A DNA stretch of 64,000 bases from Escherichia coli (GTDB taxonomy: Bacteria > Pseudomonadota > Gammaproteobacteria > Enterobacterales > Enterobacteriaceae): assembly GCF_050920415.1 (NCBI RefSeq), contig NZ_CP169309.1; one strand, 5' to 3'. Both the position numbers and the translations under genes were made by a program. Shown here piece by piece: positions 1 to 36,574 of the stretch. The notes below the pieces were generated by a model. The model was not told where the DNA came from, made no database searches, and saw nothing but the letters and a program-made list of their open reading frames with translations. Positions within the stretch are counted from its first letter, which is position 1, and each line of letters starts with the position of its first letter.

Positions 1-17
1 ACGGATCTGGAGGTAAC

Positions 18-1067
18 GTGCGGGTATTACTTCGACCTGTACCGGTACCGGAACTCGGGGTGGTTATCGTTAAGCCAGGCCGTGAATCAATGTCGGTATT
101 CCATAACGACAGAGTACTGGTGGAGCCGGAACCAAAAAGCATGCGCGGTCTGCCGTCCGGAGTCGTCCCTACCGTTCGCCAGCCGCTGGCGGAGGATAAA
201 TCATTACTGCCGTTTTTCAGTAACAAACGAGTGATTCGTGCTGCTGGCGGCGCTGGTGCACTGTCTGACTGGTTACTGCGCCATGTCAAATCCTGCCAGT
301 GGCCTCATGGTGATTACCACCATAGTGAAACCGTTATTCACCGTTACGGTACCGGCGCGATGGTATTGTGCTGGCACTGCGACAACCAGCTGCGCGACCA
401 GACATCGGAATCACTCGAGCAACTTGCTCAACAAAATCTGACAGCCTGGATGCTTGAGGTTATACGTCACGCAATGAATGGCACGCAGGAGCGGGAATTA
501 TCGCTGGCTGAATTATCCTGGTGGGCGGTTTGCAATCAGGTGGTGGATGCTCTACCTGAGGCAGTATCACGTCGTTCGTTGGGATTACCGGTGGAAAAAA
601 TCCTCTCTGTGTATCGCGAGAGCGACATCGTACCGGGAGAACAGACAGCCACCAGCATACTGAAGCAGCGCACAAAAAATATTGCGCTACCGCCTCACGT
701 CCACCAGCAACAAAACTCACCACAGGAAAAGGCGGTGGTAAGCATCGCCGTTGATCCTGAGTCCCCGGAATCTTTCATGAAGCGACCTAAACGTCGCCGT
801 TGGGTAAATGAGAAATACACACGCTGGGTAAAGACACAGTCGTGTGCGTGCTGTGGTAAGCCAGCTGACGATCCCCATCACCTGATAGGTCATGGTCAGG
901 GCGGAATGGGAACAAAGGCCCACGATATTTTCACGTTACCGTTGTGTCGTAAACATCATAACGAGCTTCATGCAGAACCGTTGGCGTTCGAAGAAAAGCA
1001 TGGTTCTCAGGTTGATTTAATTTTTCGTTTTCTTGATCACGCCTTTGCAACCGGCGTGCTCGGATAA
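18..1067 (+). CDS. Prophage nin-region protein with C-terminal Cys/His-rich HNH-like motif (CxxC...HHL..H....C..HH...H); resembles E. coli prophage YdfU/DUF-type proteins; 5' end may lie outside window
   Basis: 349-aa ORF directly upstream of rusA and the Q-like gene; zinc-finger/HNH-like motif visible in translation; no stop upstream of position 18. Confidence 0.5.
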   Translation: MRVLLRPVPVPELGVVIVKPGRESMSVFHNDRVLVEPEPKSMRGLPSGVVPTVRQPLAEDKSLLPFFSNKRVIRAAGGAGALSDWLLRHVKSCQWPHGDYHHSETVIHRYGTGAMVLCWHCDNQLRDQTSESLEQLAQQNLTAWMLEVIRHAMNGTQERELSLAELSWWAVCNQVVDALPEAVSRRSLGLPVEKILSVYRESDIVPGEQTATSILKQRTKNIALPPHVHQQQNSPQEKAVVSIAVDPESPESFMKRPKRRRWVNEKYTRWVKTQSCACCGKPADDPHHLIGHGQGGMGTKAHDIFTLPLCRKHHNELHAEPLAFEEKHGSQVDLIFRFLDHAFATGVLG

Positions 1068-1076
1068 AAGAGGTTA

Positions 1077-1439
1077 TTGATGGGGATAGAATTTGTTTTG
1101 CCTTACCCGCCGACGGTAAATACCTACTGGCGTCGTCGTGGCAGCACATATTTTGTATCAAAAGCAGGGGAGCGTTATCGCCGGGATGTGGCGCTTATTG
1201 TTCGCCAGCAGCGGCTGAAATTAAATCTGTCCGGAAGGCTGGCAATAAAAATTATTGCAGAGCCACCGGATAAGCGCCGTCGTGACCTGGACAATATTCT
1301 GAAAGCACCACTGGATGCACTGACACATGCGGGACTGCTTATCGACGACGAGCAGTTTGATGAAGTTAATATTATGCGCGGTCAGGTTGTTCCCGGTGGT
1401 CGGCTGGGGATAAAAATCACAGAACTGGAGTGCGCATGA
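1077..1439 (+). CDS. rusA: RusA crossover junction endodeoxyribonuclease (Holliday junction resolvase)
   Basis: 120-aa translation recognisably matches the RusA family; typical nin-region position upstream of Q. Confidence 0.9.
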   Translation: MMGIEFVLPYPPTVNTYWRRRGSTYFVSKAGERYRRDVALIVRQQRLKLNLSGRLAIKIIAEPPDKRRRDLDNILKAPLDALTHAGLLIDDEQFDEVNIMRGQVVPGGRLGIKITELECA

Positions 1440-2101
1440 ATAACCAGTATTTACAGTTTGTGCGTGAGCAGCTCACGATCGCCACCGCTGATTTGAGTGG
1501 AGCAACAAAAGGTCAGCTTGAAGCCTGGCAGGAGAATGCCATGTTCAATACAGGGCGTTACAGACGTAAAAAAATCCGGTACCGCGATAAGGTCACTGGA
1601 AAAATAGTAACGCTGGATAATCCACCGATCCCGGGAAAGCAATCGCTGGCGAAAGGTTCATCAATTGCCCTGGTCAGTCCGGTTGAGTTTTCGACATCAT
1701 CATGGCGACGCGCCGTTCTGTCTCTTGAAGAACATCATAAAGCCTGGCTGCTGTGGTGTTACAGCGGTAGCATTTGCTGGGAGCATCAGATCGCGATAAC
1801 GCAGTGGGCGTGGATTGAATTTAATGCTCAATCCGGTACCAGAAAAATTGCAGGAAAAACTCTGGTGCGCCTGAAGACGTTGAGCTGGTTGGCGGCGCAG
1901 GCGGTAAAAGCTGAGCTTTTTGGTGGGGAAGGTTACGAATACCAGGAACTGGCGTTACTGGTGGGAGTAACAACCAAAAACTGGTCCAAGACATTTACTG
2001 GTCACTGGGTTGCAATGAAACACATTTTTCATCGGCTGGATAGTGAAGCTTTATTGTTAGTGGAGAGAACACGTTCAAAACAAAAGGCGGCATTTTCATA
2101 G
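1430..2101 (+). CDS. Putative late-gene antiterminator (Q-family by position)
   Basis: 223-aa ORF immediately upstream of a promoter plus short-transcript terminator (pR'/tR' arrangement) and the late region; assignment by synteny, sequence not confidently recognised. Confidence 0.45.
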   Translation: MRMNNQYLQFVREQLTIATADLSGATKGQLEAWQENAMFNTGRYRRKKIRYRDKVTGKIVTLDNPPIPGKQSLAKGSSIALVSPVEFSTSSWRRAVLSLEEHHKAWLLWCYSGSICWEHQIAITQWAWIEFNAQSGTRKIAGKTLVRLKTLSWLAAQAVKAELFGGEGYEYQELALLVGVTTKNWSKTFTGHWVAMKHIFHRLDSEALLLVERTRSKQKAAFS

Positions 2102-2108
2102 CAAAGTA

Positions 2109-2137
2109 TTGCAAAAGTAGATTAAAACGCATATATT
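2109..2137 (+). promoter_or_regulatory. pR'-like late promoter (TTGCAA -17 bp- TATATT) immediately after the Q-like stop
   Basis: -35 TTGCAA at 2109-2114, 17-bp spacer, -10 TATATT at 2132-2137. Confidence 0.4.
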
Positions 2138-2188
2138 TCGTGTAAATCTGATATTTTGCCGTTTTTATACGTGATGGCAAAGCTAGTA

Positions 2189-2214
2189 AAACCCGCGACC
2201 GAGCGGGTTTTTTA
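2189..2214 (+). terminator. tR'-like rho-independent terminator (aaacccgc-gaccga-gcgggttt + T-run)
   Basis: Perfect 8-bp stem, 6-nt loop, followed by T-run; about 50-70 nt downstream of the pR'-like promoter, as for lambda 6S RNA. Confidence 0.6.
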
Positions 2215-2287
2215 TCCCCCCAAAAAATGGCATAGACATTAAACGTGATGACGATTGTGCCAATACTTTCTCCATCAATGACGCCCC

Positions 2288-2317
2288 TTGACTGCATGGA
2301 ATCCAATTTGTTATGTA
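2288..2317 (+). promoter_or_regulatory. Candidate sigma70 promoter for the moron membrane-protein gene (TTGACT ... TGtTATGTA)
   Basis: Consensus-like -35 TTGACT at 2288-2293; extended -10-like TGnTATGTA about 18 bp downstream; lies after tR' and before the ATG at 2356. Confidence 0.3.
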
Positions 2318-2355
2318 ATATGTGTTGATATTTTTGAGTTGTTAATGGTGTTACT

Positions 2356-3069
2356 ATGAATGACAGTGCTCTGCTCAGAAACTCTTCACTTTTTGTTGCT
2401 TATATGGGCTGTCTAGGATGGGGAAGCGCTTATTTCTATGGATGGGGTACTTCATTTTACTATGGCTTTCCATGGTGGGTTGTCGGGGCTGGTGTCGATG
2501 ATGTTGCACGAAGTTTGTTTTATGCTGTGACAGTTATCGTTATATTCCTTATTGGATGGGGAGTTGGTATTGTTTTCTTTTTGGGCATAAAACAAAAGCG
2601 CAATATACAAAATTTGAGTTTTATCCGGCTTTTTCTCGCGATATTGCTGCTTTTTATTCCACCTGTTCTGGAGTTTTCGGTAATTCATCAGCATGTTGAG
2701 CCAGATGTACTGATTTTCTGCATTCTTGCTGCCTTTACAATCACGCTTTTTGTCAGGTCTGGAAGAAGACTTGTTTCAGTCAAATGTTTTTCGGAAATGT
2801 CTTTTATTCGCCATCACCGAATTGAGTTCATGATGGCTGGGTTTATGATTTATTTCTGGGCATTCTCTCTTATTGCCGGTTGGTACAAACCACAGTTTAA
2901 GAGGGAATATCAGGCGATCCACTATGAGAATGTATGGTATTACATTATTGCGCGTTATGATGATCGTCTGGTGTTATCGAAATCATACAGGAGTGGGGGT
3001 AAGAAATTCGTTATATTTAATAGCGGAAATATTAATGATTTTGAAATTAATACTATCAGAGTGCGTTAA
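2356..3069 (+). CDS. Uncharacterised integral membrane protein (about 4 predicted TM helices, Trp/Tyr/Gly-rich N-terminus, about 60-aa soluble C-terminal tail); moron
   Basis: 237-aa ORF, AT-rich codon usage unlike flanking phage genes, hydrophobic segments visible in translation; no family recognised. Confidence 0.7.
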   Translation: MNDSALLRNSSLFVAYMGCLGWGSAYFYGWGTSFYYGFPWWVVGAGVDDVARSLFYAVTVIVIFLIGWGVGIVFFLGIKQKRNIQNLSFIRLFLAILLLFIPPVLEFSVIHQHVEPDVLIFCILAAFTITLFVRSGRRLVSVKCFSEMSFIRHHRIEFMMAGFMIYFWAFSLIAGWYKPQFKREYQAIHYENVWYYIIARYDDRLVLSKSYRSGGKKFVIFNSGNINDFEINTIRVR

Positions 3070-3243
3070 AATTTCTTGAGTAATGAAGATTTTTACTGCC
3101 CGGCATTGAGCGGTTTTTTTATGCCAGAAAAATGGTGTGGTACATAAAATGTGCTGGTGGTTATTAATACCGGTCTTTCAGCTTGCTGGCTTTTTCGACA
3201 AGAGTTATTGGTATGTCACGTTAACCAATAAAGAGAAAAAGAC

Positions 3244-3441
3244 ATGCTAAAACAGCAGGATATGACCGAAACAGCCAGAGTGGTGTTTAATGAATTAAGC
3301 GTCACTGAACCGGCAACAGTTGGGGAAATTGCGCAGAATACTTACCTTTCACGCGAACGCTGCCAGTTAATACTGACCCAGCTTGTGATGGCGGGTCTGG
3401 CAGATTATCAGTTCGGTTGTTACAGACGCCTTCCGCAGTGA
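3244..3441 (+). CDS. Small (65 aa) putative winged-helix/HTH DNA-binding protein
   Basis: Helix-turn-helix-like segment (ATVGEIAQNTYLSRERCQLILTQLVMAGLA); own rho-independent terminator overlapping the stop. Confidence 0.45.
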   Translation: MLKQQDMTETARVVFNELSVTEPATVGEIAQNTYLSRERCQLILTQLVMAGLADYQFGCYRRLPQ

Positions 3442-3591: not shown

Positions 3592-4677
3592 ATGGCTAAT
3601 ACTGTAAAAATATCCAGTTGTGAGTTAATCAACACTGATTGCCTGGAATTTATCCAGACCTTATCGGAAAACTCTGTCGATCTTATAGTCACAGACCCGC
3701 CATATTTTAAAGTGAAGCCCGAGGGCTGGGATAACCAGTGGAAGGGCGACGATGATTACCTAAAATGGCTGGACCAGTGTCTGGCTCAGTTCTGGCGGGT
3801 ACTGAAGCCTGCCGGAAGTCTTTACCTGTTTTGTGGTCATCGCCTGGCATCTGATATCGAAATCATGATGCGTGAGCGCTTTAATGTGCTGAACCACATT
3901 ATCTGGGCGAAGCCGTCCGGACGCTGGAACGGGTGCAACAAAGAAAGCCTGCGGGCGTATTTCCCGGCAACAGAGCGCATTCTGTTTGCCGAACATTATC
4001 AGGGGCCATATCAGCCAAAAAATGCCGGCTATGCGGCAAAGGAGCGCGAGCTTAAACAACACGTCATGGCCCCGCTGATTTTTTACTTTCGTGATGCGCG
4101 TGAATCACTGGGAATAACGTCCAAACAGATAGCGGAAGCCACCGGAAAGAAAAACATGGTGTCGCACTGGTTTGGTACCAGTCAGTGGCAGTTACCGAAC
4201 GAAGCTGATTACAGAAAACTGCAGGCGCTGTTCGCGCGTGTTGCAGAAGAAAAACACCAGCGTGGGGAGCTGGCAACGCCACACCAACTGCTGGTCAGCA
4301 CATACAGTGAACTGAACCGGCAATATGCCAGTCTGCTTGAGGAATACAAATCTCTGCGGCGTTATTTTTCTGTATCGGCCGCCGTTCCTTATACGGATGT
4401 CTGGACGCATAAGCCCGTACAGTATTATCCGGGTAAGCATCCCTGCGAAAAACCGGCGGATATGTTGCGTCAGATAATTTCTGCCAGCAGTCGTCCGGGG
4501 GATGTGGTTGCGGATTTTTTTATGGGATCGGGGGCAACAATAAAAGCAGCAATGGGATTGGGGCGTCGCACGATTGGGGTTGAACTTGAGTCCGGGCGTT
4601 TTGAACAAACAGTTGGTGAAATATTGGTGCTGAACGATAAATTGCGAAATGCACAATTAGATAAGAACAGGAGCTAA
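3592..4677 (+). CDS. DNA methyltransferase, beta-class (N6-adenine or N4-cytosine); apparently orphan
   Basis: Motif IV DPPY near N-terminus (LIVTDPPYF), motif I FxGxG-like (DFFMGSGAT) near C-terminus; no restriction endonuclease ORF adjacent. Confidence 0.85.
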   Translation: MANTVKISSCELINTDCLEFIQTLSENSVDLIVTDPPYFKVKPEGWDNQWKGDDDYLKWLDQCLAQFWRVLKPAGSLYLFCGHRLASDIEIMMRERFNVLNHIIWAKPSGRWNGCNKESLRAYFPATERILFAEHYQGPYQPKNAGYAAKERELKQHVMAPLIFYFRDARESLGITSKQIAEATGKKNMVSHWFGTSQWQLPNEADYRKLQALFARVAEEKHQRGELATPHQLLVSTYSELNRQYASLLEEYKSLRRYFSVSAAVPYTDVWTHKPVQYYPGKHPCEKPADMLRQIISASSRPGDVVADFFMGSGATIKAAMGLGRRTIGVELESGRFEQTVGEILVLNDKLRNAQLDKNRS

Positions 4678-5657: not shown

Positions 5658-6083
5658 ATGTTAGGTATTTTCAAAAAGAAAACCCGCAAGGCCATCACAG
5701 AAGTGAAGAAGATGGAGAACCGTGATGCGGTGGAGGCGACCGTCTGGGGCGCATATTCCATTGCATATGCCGACGGCACCTGCGATGCGAAAGAAATCGC
5801 AGTACTGGAGAAAACTATTGCTGCGCTTCCTGCTTTTGCACCGTTCTCTGGTGAGATTGCCCAGATGAGCGCCAATATCCGCGCCCGTTATGAAGCGTCA
5901 CCGCGTAGTGCGAATGCGCATGCATTGCGTGAGCTGGCTGATGTGGCGGGGACAACTGAGGCGGTTGACGTGCTTTGCCTCTGTCTGGATATCGCTGATC
6001 AGGATGGCATTGGTCCGGATGAAGAAGCGCAGCTCAAGAAAATTGCACAGGCGCTTCAGTTACCACTGGAGCAGTATCTGTGA
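5658..6083 (+). CDS. TerB-like (tellurite-resistance TerB / DjlA N-terminal domain family) protein
   Basis: 141-aa helical protein whose acidic C-terminal motif (LCLCLDIADQDGIGPDEEAQLKKIAQAL) is typical of TerB-domain proteins. Confidence 0.55.
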   Translation: MLGIFKKKTRKAITEVKKMENRDAVEATVWGAYSIAYADGTCDAKEIAVLEKTIAALPAFAPFSGEIAQMSANIRARYEASPRSANAHALRELADVAGTTEAVDVLCLCLDIADQDGIGPDEEAQLKKIAQALQLPLEQYL

Positions 6084-7558: not shown

Positions 7559-7726
7559 ATTGTTCAAAAAACGAAAGAACGGAGGTACGTATGTACGCAC
7601 TGAAAAAGATTACGGTAACTGAAGATGGTCGTCAGTAGACTGGCCCCCTGAATCTCCAGACAACCAGTATCACTTAAATAAGTGATAGTCTTAATACTAG
7701 TTTTTAGACTAGTCATTGGAGAACAG

Positions 7727-8092
7727 ATGATTGATGTCTTAGGGCCGGAGAAACGCAGACGGCGTACCACACAGGAAAAGATCGCAATTGTTCAGCAGAG
7801 CTTTGAACCGGGGATGACGGTCTCCCTCGTTGCCCGGCAACATGGTGTAGCAGCCAGCCAGTTATTTCTCTGGCGTAAGCAATACCAGGAAGGAAGTCTT
7901 ACTGCTGTCGCCGCCGGAGAACAGGTTGTTCCTGCCTCTGAACTTGCTGCCGCCATGAAGCAGATTAAAGAACTCCAGCGCCTGCTCGGCAAGAAAACGA
8001 TGGAAAATGAACTCCTCAAAGAAGCCGTTGAATATGGACGGGCAAAAAAGTGGATAGCGCACGCGCCCTTATTGCCCGGGGATGGGGAGTAA
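7727..8092 (+). CDS. insC: IS2 transposase OrfA (InsC)
   Basis: Translation [41 protein letters not shown]... matches IS2 InsC. Confidence 0.9.
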
Positions 8093-8955
8093 GCTTAGTC
8101 AGCCGTTGTCTCCGGGTGTCGCGTGCGCAGTTGCACGTCATTCTCAGACGAACCGATGACTGGATGGATGGCCGCCGCAGTCGTCACACTGATGATACGG
8201 ATGTGCTTCTCCGTATACACCATGTTATCGGAGAGCTGCCCACGTATGGTTATCGTCGGGTATGGGCGCTGCTTCGCAGACAGGCAGAACTTGATGGTAT
8301 GCCTGCAATCAATGCCAAACGTGTTTACCGGATCATGCGCCAGAATGCGCTGTTGCTTGAGCGAAAACCTGCTGTACCGCCATCGAAACGGGCACATACA
8401 GGCAGAGTGGCCGTGAAAGAAAGCAATCAGCGATGGTGCTCTGACGGGTTCGAGTTCTGCTGTGATAACGGAGAGAGACTGCGTGTCACGTTCGCGCTGG
8501 ACTGCTGTGATCGTGAGGCACTGCACTGGGCGGTGACTACTGGCGGCTTCAACAGTGAAACAGTACAGGACGTCATGCTGGGAGCGGTGGAACGCCGCTT
8601 CGGCAACGATCTTCCGTCGTCTCCAGTGGAGTGGCTGACGGATAATGGTTCATGCTACCGGGCTAATGAAACACGCCAGTTCGCCCGGATGTTGGGACTT
8701 GAACCGAAGAACACGGCGGTGCGGAGTCCGGAGAGTAACGGAATAGCAGAGAGCTTCGTGAAAACGATAAAGCGTGACTACATCAGTATCATGCCCAAAC
8801 CAGACGGGTTAACGGCAGCAAAGAACCTTGCAGAGGCGTTCGAGCATTATAACGAATGGCATCCGCATAGTGCGCTGGGTTATCGCTCGCCACGGGAATA
8901 TCTGCGGCAGCGGGCTTGTAATGGGTTAAGTGATAACAGATGTCTGGAAATATAG
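8050..8955 (+). CDS. insD: IS2 transposase OrfB (InsD), DDE integrase-type
   Basis: 301-aa translation matches IS2 InsD; overlaps insC in the -1 frame as in IS2. Confidence 0.9.
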
Positions 8956-9236
8956 GGGCAAATCCAGTCAGGTTGAGGAAGTGCATGTCCTGGGGGGATA
9001 TGTATCGTATGGAGTTTTACCCGCGTAATACCCATCTGGCAGCAAAAATTGAGTATTGCCGGAACGGGAATATTTCATGTTTGCAGGTAGAGAAAACGGA
9101 TGAGGCTTATATCACTACGCTGAACGGCGATACGATGTCAGCGCCAATGATATAAGACAGTAATTCACCATTTGGATTGTCCGCTCCACCCAACATGTTG
9201 TTTCCTTAAGGTTCCTACACCACAAAGGGAACACTC

Positions 9237-11202
<1,966 letters not shown>

Positions 11203-12919: not shown

Positions 12920-13597
12920 TAGCGGGTTTTCGCTATTTACGAGTTTTTTTGAGGTGATGGTTGTTGTTTTATCGTTTGATATATCTACTTGATAAGTAAT
13001 AAGAAAGAAAAATAAACACAACAACCTGATGATCTTTCTTATACGAAAAAGCATGTAAAATCAGAGGGTTTTACAAAAAACGTGGTTGTTGTATTGCTTT
13101 TTTGCCGGTGGTTTATGGAGGGGCTGTGGCCTTTTTATTGAATAAAAGCGACATGGCCTCCTCCATCGGTATCTCAGTACAGGCATTTGATAAATGGGGT
13201 GTTCCTCCTGTTGAGCGCCGGGGGAGAGAGGTTTTCTATGACGTTAAAACTGTACTGGAGATAGATCGCGAGCGACGTCAACAAAACCAGAAATCTTCAG
13301 GTGGTGAAAATGATCTTGAGGAAAGGCTACTTCAGGCCAGGGTTAACCTGACGGAAGAACAGGCTATTGCTCAGCGGTTAAAAAACCAGGTTGCAGAGCA
13401 TAAGGTGATTGATACAGCTTTCTCTATTTTTGCCCTGTCCCGGTTATCCGGAGAACTGGCATCTGTTTTGGACAGTATTCCGCTTTCGATGCAAAGAAAA
13501 TTCCCTGAATTGACAGGCAGACAATTGGCTTATCTAAAAGAGCTGGTTGCGAAGGGGGCTAATAAATGCGTTGAGTCCGCTGAAAAAATGAAGGAAT

Positions 13598-17310
<3,713 letters not shown>

Positions 17311-17330
<20 letters not shown>

Positions 17331-31849: not shown

Positions 31850-31907
31850 ATGTTCAGAAACCAGACCGGGTGCCAGAAATGGCACCTTTTTTATTTGTGG
31901 AACGAAT

Positions 31908-34492
31908 ATGGCAGTAAAGATTTCAGGCGTGCTGAAAGACGGTGCAGGTAAACCGGTACAGAACTGCACCATTCAGCTGAAAGCAAAACGTAACAGTACC
32001 ACGGTGGTGGTGAACACGGTGGCCTCAGAAAATCCGGATGAAGCCGGGCGTTACAGTATGGACGTTGAGTACGGCCAGTACGGTGTCATCCTGCTGGTTG
32101 AAGGTTTTCCGCCGTCACATGCCGGCACCATCACCGTGTATGAAGATTCTGAGCCGGGGACGCTGAATGATTTTCTCGGTGCCATGACGGAGGATGATGC
32201 CCGTCCGGAGGCACTGCGCCGTTTTGAACTGATGGTGGAAGAGGTGGCGCGTAACGCGTCCGCAGTGGCACAGAACACGGCAGCCGCGAAAAAATCCGCC
32301 GGCGATGCCGGAACATCTGCCCGTGAGGCGGCAACCCATGCGACTGATGCTGCAGGCTCAGCACGCGCCGCCAGCACGTCCGCCGGACAGGCTGCGACGT
32401 CAGCACAGGAAGCATCTTCCGGCGCAGAAACAGCCTCAGCAAAGGCCGCTGAGGCATCAAAAAGTGCTGCCGCTGCAGAGTCCTCAAAAAGCGCGGCGGC
32501 CACCAGTGCCGGTGCCGCGAAAACGTCAGAAACGAATGCGGCAGCGTCACAACAATCAGCCGCCACGTCTGCATCCACCGCGACCACGAAAGCGTCAGAA
32601 GCTGCCACGTCAGCCAGGGATGCGGCGGCCTCAAAAGAGGCGGCAAAATCATCAGAAACGAGCGCAGCCTCGAGCGCCGGTAGTGCAGCTTCCTCGGCAA
32701 CGGCGGCAGGAAATTCCGCGAAGGCGGCAAAGACGTCTGAGACGACGCCAGGTCTTCTGAAACGGCAGCGGAACAGAGTGCCTCCGCAGCAGCAGGCTCA
32801 GAAACTGCCGCTGCATCATCGTCCCGTGAGGCGTCAGTTAAAGCGGAGGAGGCATCAGCCAGTGCCACCGCCGCCGGAAAATCGGCAGAAAGTGCCGCAT
32901 CGTCCGCTTCAGCAGCCACAACGAAGGCTGGCGAAGCCACTGAACAGGCCACTGCAGCAGTGAGGTCTGCTTCCGCTGCGAGGACATCCGAGACGAACGC
33001 GAAAGCGTCGGAAACCCGTGCAGAATCTTCAGAAACGGCTGCCGTATCGTCCGCCAGTTCGGCGGCGTCATCAGCATCATCGGCGTCAGCTTCAAAAGAT
33101 GAGGCGGCAAGGCTGGCGTCAGAGGCGCAGGGCAGTGCCACGACGGCATCCGCGAAGGCGACAGAGGCAGCTGGCAGTGCGACAGCGGCAGCACAGAGCA
33201 AAAGCACGGCAGAATCCGCGGCAACGCGCGCCGAGACTGCGGCAAAACGGGCGGAGGATATTGCGTCTGCCGTGGCGCTTGAGGATGCGAGCACGACGAA
33301 AAAGGGGATAGTCCAGCTCAGCAGTGCAACCAACAGCACTTCCGAGTCACTGGCGGCAACACCAAAGGCCGTAAAAGCCGCCTGTGAGAATGCTGAGAAA
33401 CGACTGCAGAAAGATAAGAACGGTGCGGATGTCCCCGACAAAGACACCTTTACGAAAAATATTGGTGCCTGCCGTGCCTTCGGTGGGGCCGTAAGCACAA
33501 CGACAGGAGACTGGACGACCGCACAGTTTATCGGGTGGCTGGATTCTCAGGGCGCATTTAACCACCCATACTGGATGTGCAAGGGCTCCTGGTCTTACGG
33601 TAATAATAAAATCATCACGGATACGGGCTGCGGAAATATTCATCTCGCCGGCGCTGTCATTGAGGTGATGGGGATAAAGTCAGCGATGACGATCCGCATA
33701 ACCACACCGACAACATCCAGCGGAAGTGGAACGGCGAATGCGCAGTTTACCTATATTAATCATGGTGATGGTTATTCCCCTGGCTGGCGTCGTGACTACA
33801 ACACGAAAAACAAGCCACCGGCCTTTGCGCTGGGAAAAACCGGGGAAACGCTCGCCGATACAGATGCCGTCGCCTGGAACCTGGACAGTGGCGCTTATTG
33901 TGCACAGGATGGTGGCGCATCATCCTTAATTCTTCATTTTAATACAGGGGAAGGCAGCTGCCCCGCGGTCCAGTTTCGGGTGAATTACCGGAATGGCGGG
34001 ATATTTTACCGCTCCGCCCGTGATGGCTATGGCTTTGAGGCGGACTGGGAGCGTCTGTTCACGACAACGGGCGGGACCCTGGAAGGTGCTGTGGGTATCG
34101 GTGCACAGAATACGCTGGGCGGCCATTCACTTGCGCTGGGGAGGGGCGACACAGGCCTGAAACAAAACGGCGACGGTAATCTTGATGTTTACGCCGGTAA
34201 CGCACGTGTAATGCGCTTTACAAACGGCAGCATTCAGGTCAGTAAAGGGCTGAATGTGTCCGGGCGCGTTAATCCTTCCGATTACAGTAATTTTGATATC
34301 CGCTATGTCAGGGATATCCGGCTGGGTACGCGTGTTGTTCAGGGCATGCAAAAAGGCGTGACGTATGAGAAATCCGGCCATGTCATTACGGGGCTTTGTC
34401 TTGTCGGGGATGCTGATGGCGATAACTCAGCGGTTTACCGGCCGGTGCAAAAATACATAAACGGCACATGGTTTAACGTATCGCAGGTATAA
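31908..34492 (+). pseudogene. stf: Side tail fibre protein Stf, disrupted by a 1-nt frameshift near 32747 within the Ala/Ser/Thr-rich repeat region
   Basis: N-terminus MAVKISGVLKDGAGKPVQNCTIQLKA... and the conserved GIVQLSSATNSTSESLAATPKAVKAA motif lie in different frames; genuine repeat sequence continues in the other frame across 32741. Confidence 0.75.
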
Positions 34493-35026: not shown

Positions 35027-35290
35027 ATACCGGAGAAGAGGATTTTACGTTAATCAGTAATTACAGGCAGAGATGATAAAAGCCGCGGAACATTGTATGC
35101 AGGAATGTGCTGCGGCATACCGGATAACTGCGTATGTTGTGGAGTTTTATTTGGGGCATATATGGGACAGAAACAGGCCTCAGATAGGCAGTGATATTGA
35201 GATCAGGATATTTTTGAAAAGATGCAACCATTTGAAAAAACATAGAAAACCCCAAGAAAACCACAGGATGAAAAAAAACACCTATGAATC

Positions 35291-36574
35291 ATGGATTTCC
35301 AGTTATATTCGCTCGGCGCAGCGTTAGTGTTTCATGAAATATTTTTTCCTGAATCATCAACGGCAATGGCGTTAATTCTGGCAATGGGAACCTACGGTGC
35401 AGGTTATGTGGCGCGTATTGTCGGAGCATTTATTTTCGGCAAAATGGGCGACAGAATCGGGCGTAAAAAAGTGCTCTTTATTACCATCACTATGATGGGG
35501 ATCTGTACCACCTTAATTGGTGTGCTGCCGACCTATGCACAAATTGGTGTGTTTGCGCCAATTTTGCTGGTGACGCTGCGTATTATTCAGGGGCTGGGGG
35601 CAGGCGCGGAAATTTCCGGTGCCGGTACGATGCTGGCGGAATATGCGCCAAAAGGTAAGCGCGGAATTATCTCCTCATTTGTTGCTATGGGGACTAACTG
35701 CGGAACCTTGAGCGCAACGGCAATCTGGGCCTTTATGTTCTTCATTCTCAGTAAAGAGGAACTGTTGGCGTGGGGATGGCGTATACCGTTCCTGGCGAGC
35801 GTTGTCGTGATGGTCTTTGCTATCTGGTTGCGTATGAATCTGAAAGAAAGCCCGGTCTTTGAGAAGGTTAACGACAGCAACCAACCGACAGCAAAACCTG
35901 CACCTGCTGGTAGCATGTTCCAGAGCAAATCCTTCTGGCTGGCAACAGGGCTGCGTTTTGGTCAGGCTGGTAACTCAGGTTTAATTCAGACTTTCCTTGC
36001 AGGCTATTTAGTGCAGACGTTATTGTTTAACAAAGCAATTCCAACAGATGCATTGATGATCAGTTCGATTCTCGGCTTTATGACCATTCCGTTCCTTGGT
36101 TGGTTATCCGATAAAATTGGTCGCCGGATCCCGTATATTATTATGAATACCTCTGCGATTGTGCTGGCGTGGCCAATGCTTTCTATCATCGTAGATAAAA
36201 GCTATGCCCCGAGCACCATTATGGTTGCACTGATTGTGATTCATAACTGTGCGGTGCTGGGATTATTTGCTCTGGAAAACATTACCATGGCAGAAATGTT
36301 CGGCTGTAAAAATCGCTTTACCCGGATGGCCATTTCTAAAGAAATTGGTGGTCTTATCGCTTCCGGTTTTGGTCCTATCCTGGCGGGTATTTTCTGCACC
36401 ATGACGGAATCCTGGTATCCGATCGCCATTATGATCATGGCATATTCAGTGATTGGTTTAATCTCTGCGCTGAAAATGCCAGAAGTGAAAGACCGTGATT
36501 TAAGTGCACTGGAAGATGCCGCGGAAGATCAACCGCGTGTTGTAACAGCTGCGCAACCTTCAAGAAGTCTGTAA
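35291..36574 (+). pseudogene. ydfJ: MFS transporter YdfJ, 5'-truncated by the prophage insertion (prophage right junction about 35285-35290)
   Basis: 427-aa ORF lacking the first TM region of the family; in-frame stop immediately upstream of the ATG; same arrangement as Qin-interrupted ydfJ in K-12. Confidence 0.8.

Follow-up and report, generated by a model that had tools for sequence, protein, structure and literature searches.

Near the start of a 64,000 nt stretch of Escherichia coli DNA (hereafter the window; assembly GCF_050920415.1, contig NZ_CP169309.1) lies an open reading frame (ORF) of 349 codons plus stop, occupying positions 18..1067 of the + strand in the ORF listing, which represents an intact member of the ydfU family (DUF968) in a Qin-like lambdoid prophage. 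The gene order is hypothetical gene, ydfU, rusA and Q (Table 1), with ydfU placed last or next to last in the delayed-early operon. The ORF begins with a GTG codon at position 18, preceded by the Shine-Dalgarno sequence GGAGG (9-13) at a spacing of 4 nt, and the TAA stop codon of the upstream gene lies at 14-16. Two complete E. coli chromosomes match positions 1-2200 of the window with 100% identity. In one of them, NZ_CP169399.1, RefSeq gives this ORF an identical start and lists it as WP_001354678.1 ('DUF968 domain-containing protein'), and the previous gene ends two bases ahead of the ydfU-family ORF; mechanical ORF calling in this longer context gave identical ORF boundaries. An earlier note on this DNA, made from the sequence alone, had asked for a check on a possible extension of the ORF upstream of the window, and the shared start together with the RefSeq boundaries in NZ_CP169399.1 show that there is none.

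Family, distribution and selection

The protein matched the Pfam family DUF968 (PF06147) with 255 bits against a gathering cut-off of 27.8 bits (E 4.9e-76), with residues 160-346 covering profile positions 1-171 of 171, and gave a full-length, end to end match to PHROG 96, which is described as 'HNH endonuclease'. Its alignment with YdfU of E. coli K-12 (b1560, from the Qin prophage) is gap-free, with 297/349 residues identical (85%), while no NCBIfam model matches the 349-aa protein. The earlier note had stated that the N-terminal two-thirds of the protein belong to no obvious family; this stands for residues 1-160, where Pfam gave no significant family, but not for the remainder, as DUF968 takes in residues 160-346 and PHROG 96 spans the whole protein. 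Apart from the presence of rusA between ydfU and Q, which K-12 Qin lacks, there is no other difference of substance from the K-12 gene, which likewise encodes a DUF968 protein and has Q as a nearby downstream neighbour, and the prophage described here appears to share the chromosomal site of K-12 Qin, at ydfJ.

Earlier publications have described the family together with its HNH motif, its placement among His-Me proteins alongside YbcO, the neighbouring RusA and Q genes and the prediction that it is a nuclease. DUF968/YdfU constitutes 'group 7' of the His-Me finger proteins, with RusA and Q as neighbours (PMC5714182, Jablonska et al. 2017), the HNH motif of YdfU was noted in 2014 (PMC4118853), and the group 7 domain has been found fused to Erf and Rad52 (PMC5714182; PMC4118853). 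With the exact protein being present in RefSeq, the databases and two published classifications already cover this finding, and what we add is a second, apparently non-catalytic finger in the N-terminal part, a catalytically dead clade around the PdcB protein of phage P1, and a hypothesis at the level of individual residues. YdfU is still listed among the uncharacterised 'y-ome' genes of K-12 (PMC11551758). Related DNA is present in 4542/5426 complete E. coli genomes (~84%), so that a firm function would annotate thousands of genes; similar DNA was found at the megablast level in 20 sequenced phages, and tblastn detected homologues in 186 phage records, from phages of Escherichia, Klebsiella, Salmonella, Shigella, Yersinia and Vibrio.

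Comparison with K-12 ydfU gave a synonymous divergence (dS) of 0.68 and a ratio of nonsynonymous to synonymous divergence (dN/dS) of 0.11 overall, and by region the ratio was lowest in the HNH part (0.06) and highest in the linker (0.23). The gene has therefore been kept by selection, though the surrounding prophage is defective. It is hardly credible that the ORF is a decaying, non-functional remnant: such a fate would fit the defective prophage, with its IS2-like and IS21-like insertions and, in the near-identical reference, a portal gene annotated as frameshifted and a tail-fibre gene annotated as truncated, and would also fit the many truncated or chimeric YdfU fragments in public databases, but the reading frame is intact and full-length with a good ribosome-binding site, full-length homologues are found in viable phages, and the dN/dS value at this dS led us to reject a pseudogene, the selection analysis thus largely refuting the remnant reading.

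Some of these database fragments deserve separate mention. In seven database proteins (P0145, P0187, P0188, P0186, P0175, P0126 and P0247) the first 150-270 residues are YdfU-like and are in frame with tail-tip J, tail-fibre collar, capsid or portal domains; we have set aside these fusions to structural proteins as functional evidence, as they are probably large deletions internal to prophages or assembly chimeras. The record of the Salmonella phage ST64B splits its YdfU homologue into two overlapping genes (sb47 and sb48), and tblastn coverage takes two pieces, which suggests a frameshift or a sequencing error in the record.

Two Cys/His clusters and their predicted folds

The C-terminal Cys/His string CACCGKPADDPHHLIGHGQGGMGTKAHDIFTLPLCRKHHNELH (residues 276-318, nt 843-971) contains 11 Cys or His in 43 residues, against 27 in all 349 residues (hypergeometric P = 8.6e-5), and has the layout of a CxxC, a His nine residues on, and then CxxH-H-x3-H. 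Conservation was counted in 32 diverse homologues with 25-81% identity. The predicted zinc ligands were conserved at C276 in 32/32, C279 in 26/32, C310 in 27/32 and Cys or His at position 313 in 26/32, and the predicted catalytic residues at H288 in 29/32, D303 in 32/32, H314 in 28/32 and H318 in 28/32. Since the pattern is kept down to 25% identity and the clustering has so low a P value, the cluster is not a product of chance, and its description in the earlier note was correct.

In the AlphaFold model, H288 is located at the end of a strand (285-288) and corresponds in alignments to H113 of P1 Ref and to the His that is conserved in the YbcO family, while H314 and H318 lie on a helix (311-319) and have H185 and H189 of Gp16 from phage PhiNM1 as their counterparts; the arrangement is the beta-beta-alpha-metal fold by which proteins belonging to the His-Me finger superfamily are recognised. 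The core is preceded by a basic segment (residues 251-275) with 9 Lys or Arg in 25 residues, in which K258 (32/32) and P257 (31/32) are conserved, and which may serve as a DNA anchor, by its likeness to the basic N-terminal segment of Ref (PMC4330346). It is followed in the model by two helices (321-328 and 331-344), with G329 conserved in 32/32 and Q331 in 29/32 homologues. The best structural match was P1 Ref (PDB 3PLW), scoring 8.4 over 78 residues with 23% identity, followed by the HNH domain of IscB (6.7) and YbcO (PDB 3G27, 6.3), and at lower scores by Cap5, ScoMcrA, EcoKMcrA, GVE2 HNH, Gme HNH and the HNH domains of Cas9.

Comparisons at the sequence and profile level gave a similar picture. 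The profile of the C-terminal slice aligned by hhalign with the DUF1364 (YbcO) family profile, to the last residues, with 92.6% probability (E 4.6e-7), and BLASTP against P1 Ref gave an E of 5e-5 across HH..G..K..LPLCRxHH. The second-best Pfam match was HNHc_6 (PF16784, cut-off 26.6 bits), at 24.3 bits for the whole protein and 27.3 bits for the isolated C-terminus, and by these scores HNHc_6 is a sister family of the YdfU protein, short of clear membership. Searching PDB sequences with the whole protein, the C-terminus or the family profile returned chance matches to C2H2 zinc fingers (E 0.15-1.4) or nothing, and the Pfam and NCBIfam searches gave no match of the protein to DNA-binding or regulator families. 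The proposal that the C-terminus resembles a zinc-binding HNH nuclease was thus supported by the DUF968, PHROG 96 and YbcO profile matches, no domain search assigned the non-nuclease zinc-ribbon fold that had been named as its refutation, and the predicted HNH character of the C-terminus has good support from both fold and motif.

A second Cys/His cluster, absent from the earlier note, is present in the N-terminal part of the protein (residues 93-121, with 8/29 residues Cys or His, P = 6e-4), and 7/8 cysteines of the protein fall in the two clusters. The AlphaFold model of residues 1-195 has a predicted local distance difference test score (pLDDT) of 92.6 and a predicted template modelling score (pTM) of 0.77, and displays a beta-hairpin (105-110/113-118) leading into a helix (119-125); a Foldseek search with this model against BFVD gave nothing at E < 0.3. 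The pattern C-x7-[CH]-x16-C-x2-[HC] is conserved at C93 (46/46), Cys or His 101 (44/46), C118 (46/46) and His or Cys 121 (46/46), and these four residues look like candidate zinc ligands, judged by their pattern and their place in the model. The N-terminal finger is probably non-catalytic, because there is no conserved His at the end of its first strand. The spacing and the 'CQ' dipeptide of its C-Q-x6-[CH] knuckle match the first knuckle of YbcO, a likeness which is suggestive but anecdotal. Between the two modules, the pLDDT falls to 46-65 over residues 190-240, and this part of the alignment is rich in insertions and deletions.

Proposed role and competing explanations

The earlier note had associated the protein with RusA and with the recombination/replication module, and this link is borne out by gene order in related viruses. 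RusA was the next gene in 66/66 related IMG/VR loci with enough downstream sequence, of which 56 also had a recognisable Q, but as these loci are close relatives (88-93% identical) the RusA synteny is not phylogenetically independent. None of the 66 YdfU loci (0/66) had NinG, NinB, YbcO or YbcN within 4 kb, with NinG being searched for by tblastn with lambda NinG. The contexts of more distant phages, sampled by hand, gave the orders RusA-YdfU-Q in mEp390, RusA-x-YdfU-Q in PhiR55_1, and RusA-x-YdfU followed by unannotated genes in ST64B, whereas a Klebsiella phage has YdfU-Q with an unannotated gene in the place of RusA, and a separate small HNH gene adjoining its terminase. K-12 Qin has the Q homologue ydfT immediately after ydfU, and DLP12 has YbcO in the same slot ahead of rusA.

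From these features we infer zinc binding, nuclease activity, a substrate and partner dependence as follows. YdfU would be a zinc-stabilised, Mg/Mn-dependent His-Me nicking nuclease which acts on recombination or replication intermediates alongside RusA, and we regard this as the probable reading on balance, although with lower confidence for any dependence on a recombinase, which is proposed by analogy. In the C-terminal module (~251-349), a basic lead-in would be followed by the beta-beta-alpha-metal core of a His-Me (HNH) nuclease, which a structural Cys3His zinc site (C276, C279, C310 and H313) would hold together, with H288 predicted to act as general base and D303, H314 and H318 to organise the catalytic divalent metal. 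The family-specific N-terminal module (1-190), built around the second zinc finger that lacks a catalytic His, would most likely recognise the substrate or a partner protein, and is probably connected to the nuclease by a flexible linker of ~55 residues. The enzyme would be expressed alongside RusA, late in the early operon, and may be positioned on recombination or replication intermediates by its N-terminal zinc-finger domain and basic lead-in, and may nick D-loops and branched DNA in a Mg2+/Mn2+-dependent manner, thereby feeding or complementing RusA, possibly with stimulation by a recombinase as for the HNH relatives P1 Ref (PMC4330346) and PhiNM1 Gp16 (PMC12817073). The role in nicking such intermediates is proposed because the gene sits beside rusA and just before Q. 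This gives a concrete hypothesis, of a protein with two zinc sites whose Ref/YbcO-like C-terminal HNH module would nick recombination intermediates alongside RusA, and for which the key residues would be H288, H314 and H318 and the ligand sets C276/C279/C310/H313 and C93/H101/C118/C121.

Four characterised or predicted nucleases provide a comparison. YbcO, from DLP12 and phage 82 (DUF1364), is also encoded directly upstream of rusA in a lambdoid nin region, and like YdfU it is a predicted nuclease within the published His-Me classification (PMC4999995, 2016; PMC5714182). It is a single domain of 96 aa without an N-terminal domain, compared with 349 aa for the YdfU protein, and its first zinc knuckle is C-Q-x6-C, whereas the C-terminal module of YdfU has CxxC; the YdfU protein did not match Pfam PF07102 (DUF1364), and homology to YbcO is detectable only from profile to profile. 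P1 Ref, a RecA-dependent HNH nuclease (PMC4330346), shares with YdfU a basic segment ahead of the HNH core and a phage role tied to recombination, but is a protein of 186 aa with a disordered N-terminus, where YdfU has a folded domain of 190 residues. The only close relative with experimentally shown DNA nicking is Gp16 of PhiNM1 (HNHc_6, the Orf-HNH of Gram-positive phages), for which both nicking and RecA binding were demonstrated in 2026 (PMC12817073). Gp16 has the same CxxC..H..CxxHH...H layout and the same two-module organisation of a targeting domain followed by HNH, and it is an early gene of a recombination/replication module, with HNHc_6 genes being found within SSAP-ssb-hnhc_6-rep modules (PMC8093625). 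Its N-terminal domain is NinB/Orf-like, whereas that of YdfU is unrelated and contains a predicted zinc finger: searches for a NinB/Orf-like N-terminal domain in YdfU gave no Pfam NinB match and a single BFVD entry named NinB, at E 1.1 and a TM-score of 0.19. Finally, lambda NinG/Rap, a branch-specific endonuclease of His-Me group 24, likewise has its gene towards the end of the nin region, just ahead of Q, and has the kind of function proposed here for YdfU; an equivalence of the two would follow from gene position only, as the architecture of NinG/Rap differs, it has no detectable sequence similarity to the YdfU protein, and Pfam NinG (PF05766) gave no match at E <= 0.1.

Besides the limited independence of the RusA synteny, several observations weigh against a nicking nuclease. 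The full-length model (pLDDT 86.5, pTM 0.56) leaves the relative orientation of the two modules uncertain, the catalytic H153 of Ref lies in an insertion that the YdfU protein lacks, and the match to the Pfam family RecA_dep_nuc (PF16786) was 15.2 bits, below its threshold of 26.9 bits. Mutation of the Gp16 His equivalent to H288 did not affect growth inhibition (PMC12817073). The searchable literature contains no experiment on the YdfU/DUF968 enterobacterial clade, and no published nuclease assay of YdfU, YbcO or PdcB was found in it. In phage P1, tblastn showed that PdcB (AF234172.1 88859-89902), whose function is annotated as unknown, is homologous to YdfU over its full length, with 26% identity. 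PdcB and three metagenomic relatives keep the N-terminal C93, Q94, C118, W119 and D122 as well as the Cys residues of the zinc site at the C-terminus, yet this clade has lost H288, H314, H318 and the GGMGTK loop, which indicates that at least part of the family functions without catalysis; moreover, pdcB is non-essential for P1 (PMC10695390; PMC10067587). P1 carries Ref as well as PdcB, as separate genes, and pdcB is the gene immediately upstream of lpa, which encodes the late-promoter activator, as ydfU precedes Q.

The same findings bear on the possibility that YdfU is mainly a non-catalytic zinc-finger protein which binds DNA or protein, for example as a recombination mediator or as a regulator near the late-gene switch, with the HNH residues being a relic or accessory. 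The strongest conservation across the family is N-terminal, in the five residues shared with PdcB, and the PdcB scaffold persists after loss of its catalytic residues; the gene directly precedes a late-gene activator in lambdoid phages as well as in P1, one member of group 7 is annotated as a transcriptional regulator (PMC5714182), and zinc-finger mutations in Gp16 outweighed mutations of its catalytic His (PMC12817073). We nevertheless regard this as unlikely for the protein studied here, as every catalytic residue is retained in 28-32 of 32 sequences of its own clade, dN/dS reaches its minimum for the gene in the HNH segment, which is unexpected for a relic, and there was no match to any DNA-binding or regulator family. 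A related and speculative idea, which we would call unlikely, is that YdfU is a tandem His-Me-finger protein, in which the N-terminal finger, with its YbcO-like knuckle spacing, would have arisen by duplication of the nuclease module and degenerated, its sole task now being zinc-dependent targeting or partner binding; the catalytically dead PdcB clade would then display a nuclease-independent scaffold function, such as the recruitment of a recombinase or the coupling of DNA processing to the late-gene switch.

A nuclease could also be directed at the host rather than at phage recombination intermediates, and YdfU might then degrade or nick the DNA of the host or of a competing element, or counter host defence. 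Gp16 does inhibit host replication and growth (PMC12817073), P1 Ref raises killing by ciprofloxacin (PMC4713147), and a very strong Rho-dependent terminator is located upstream of K-12 ydfU, such terminators having been linked by the authors of that study to the silencing of toxic prophage genes (PMC9160355). We consider an offensive function of this kind to be quite unlikely, since the fixed slot by rusA and the reported domain fusions to Erf, Rad52 and RusA point to recombination, no evident immunity or antitoxin partner gene adjoins ydfU, and the protein matched no defence or anti-defence family in PADLOC, where the sole match was a spurious one to PglZ (E 0.002).

Many phage HNH proteins either assist terminase in packaging or act as selfish homing endonucleases (cited in PMC4330346, PMC12817073), but both roles are very improbable for YdfU, and we rejected them on gene context. 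The small terminase gene is ~12 kb away (~13125-13631 in the window), separated from ydfU by Q, moron genes, the lysis cassette and two insertion sequence (IS) elements, and the Klebsiella phage with a YdfU homologue has its separate small HNH gene next to the terminase. Furthermore, ydfU interrupts no other gene and keeps its place in a conserved gene order, and strong purifying selection extends over its full length, including the large non-nuclease domain.

Features of the locus and the surrounding prophage

Table 1. Position of ydfU, its predicted modules and its downstream neighbours in the window
Feature	Position	Strand	Basis
Shine-Dalgarno GGAGG	9..13	+	Read from sequence
ydfU-family gene (DUF968)	18..1067	+	ORF listing, Pfam PF06147, PHROG 96, K-12 YdfU identity, dN/dS, RefSeq
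N-terminal family-specific domain, residues 1-190	18..587	+	AlphaFold model; residues 1-160 without Pfam family
Second treble-clef beta-beta-alpha finger, residues 93-126, probably non-catalytic; candidate Zn ligands C93, H101, C118, C121	294..395	+	
Inter-domain linker, residues 191-250	588..767	+	Low model confidence, variable length
Basic lead-in to nuclease core, residues 251-275	768..842	+	Charge count, conservation
His-Me/HNH core, residues 276-318; predicted Zn site C276, C279, C310, H313; predicted catalytic set H288, D303, H314, H318	843..971	+	
C-terminal helices completing YbcO-like module, residues 319-349	972..1064	+	Model, hhalign, conservation
rusA (Holliday-junction resolvase), conserved downstream partner	1080..1439	+	Pfam RusA E 6.6e-16, RefSeq
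Antitermination protein Q gene, end of delayed-early operon	1436..2101	+	Pfam Phage_antiter_Q E 3.6e-89, RefSeq

The slot just downstream of Q is the classic 'moron' position. Here it contains a 237-aa ORF on the + strand (2356-3069), which encodes an apparent multi-pass membrane protein listed as hypothetical by RefSeq and without a Pfam or PADLOC match, and which lies in a low-GC stretch (~2000-3400) forming an island of 38-40% GC against ~50% in the flanks. It is followed by a gene on the + strand (3592-4677) for a 361-aa N6/N4 DNA methyltransferase, which matched the type II MTase model of PADLOC from end to end (E 2e-152). Pfam aligned residues 29-340 to a profile of 221 positions, which implies a large insertion, and there is a weak HTH_3 signal at residues 167-193; this is probably an orphan prophage methylase, because the annotation shows no restriction enzyme gene beside it. 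The window further contains a 141-aa protein of the TerB family (tellurite resistance) according to RefSeq (5658-6083, + strand), with a small DUF3927 gene next to it in the reference annotation, and these two genes, located between the methylase and holin genes, are candidates for further moron genes.

The prophage looks defective. Two insertion sequences follow in succession after the lysis genes, the first being an IS2-like element of the IS3 family of 1331 bp (7636-8966, with an HTH_Tnp_1 orfA and an rve orfB), which is missing from the otherwise 99.7-100% identical NZ_CP169399.1, and the second an IS21-like istA/istB pair (9237-11202) that RefSeq marks as frameshifted in NZ_CP169399.1. 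Further features lie at ~15729-17329, 31906-33468 and 35290-36573, with the portal gene being annotated as frameshifted and the tail-fibre gene as truncated in the reference; the coordinates of the portal, tail-fibre and ydfJ features were transferred from NZ_CP169399.1 by BLAST offset. The prophage abuts a 5′-truncated ydfJ, the apparent integration site of K-12 Qin, and the remainder of the window is chromosomal, extending from ydfI to lsrA and including marRAB.

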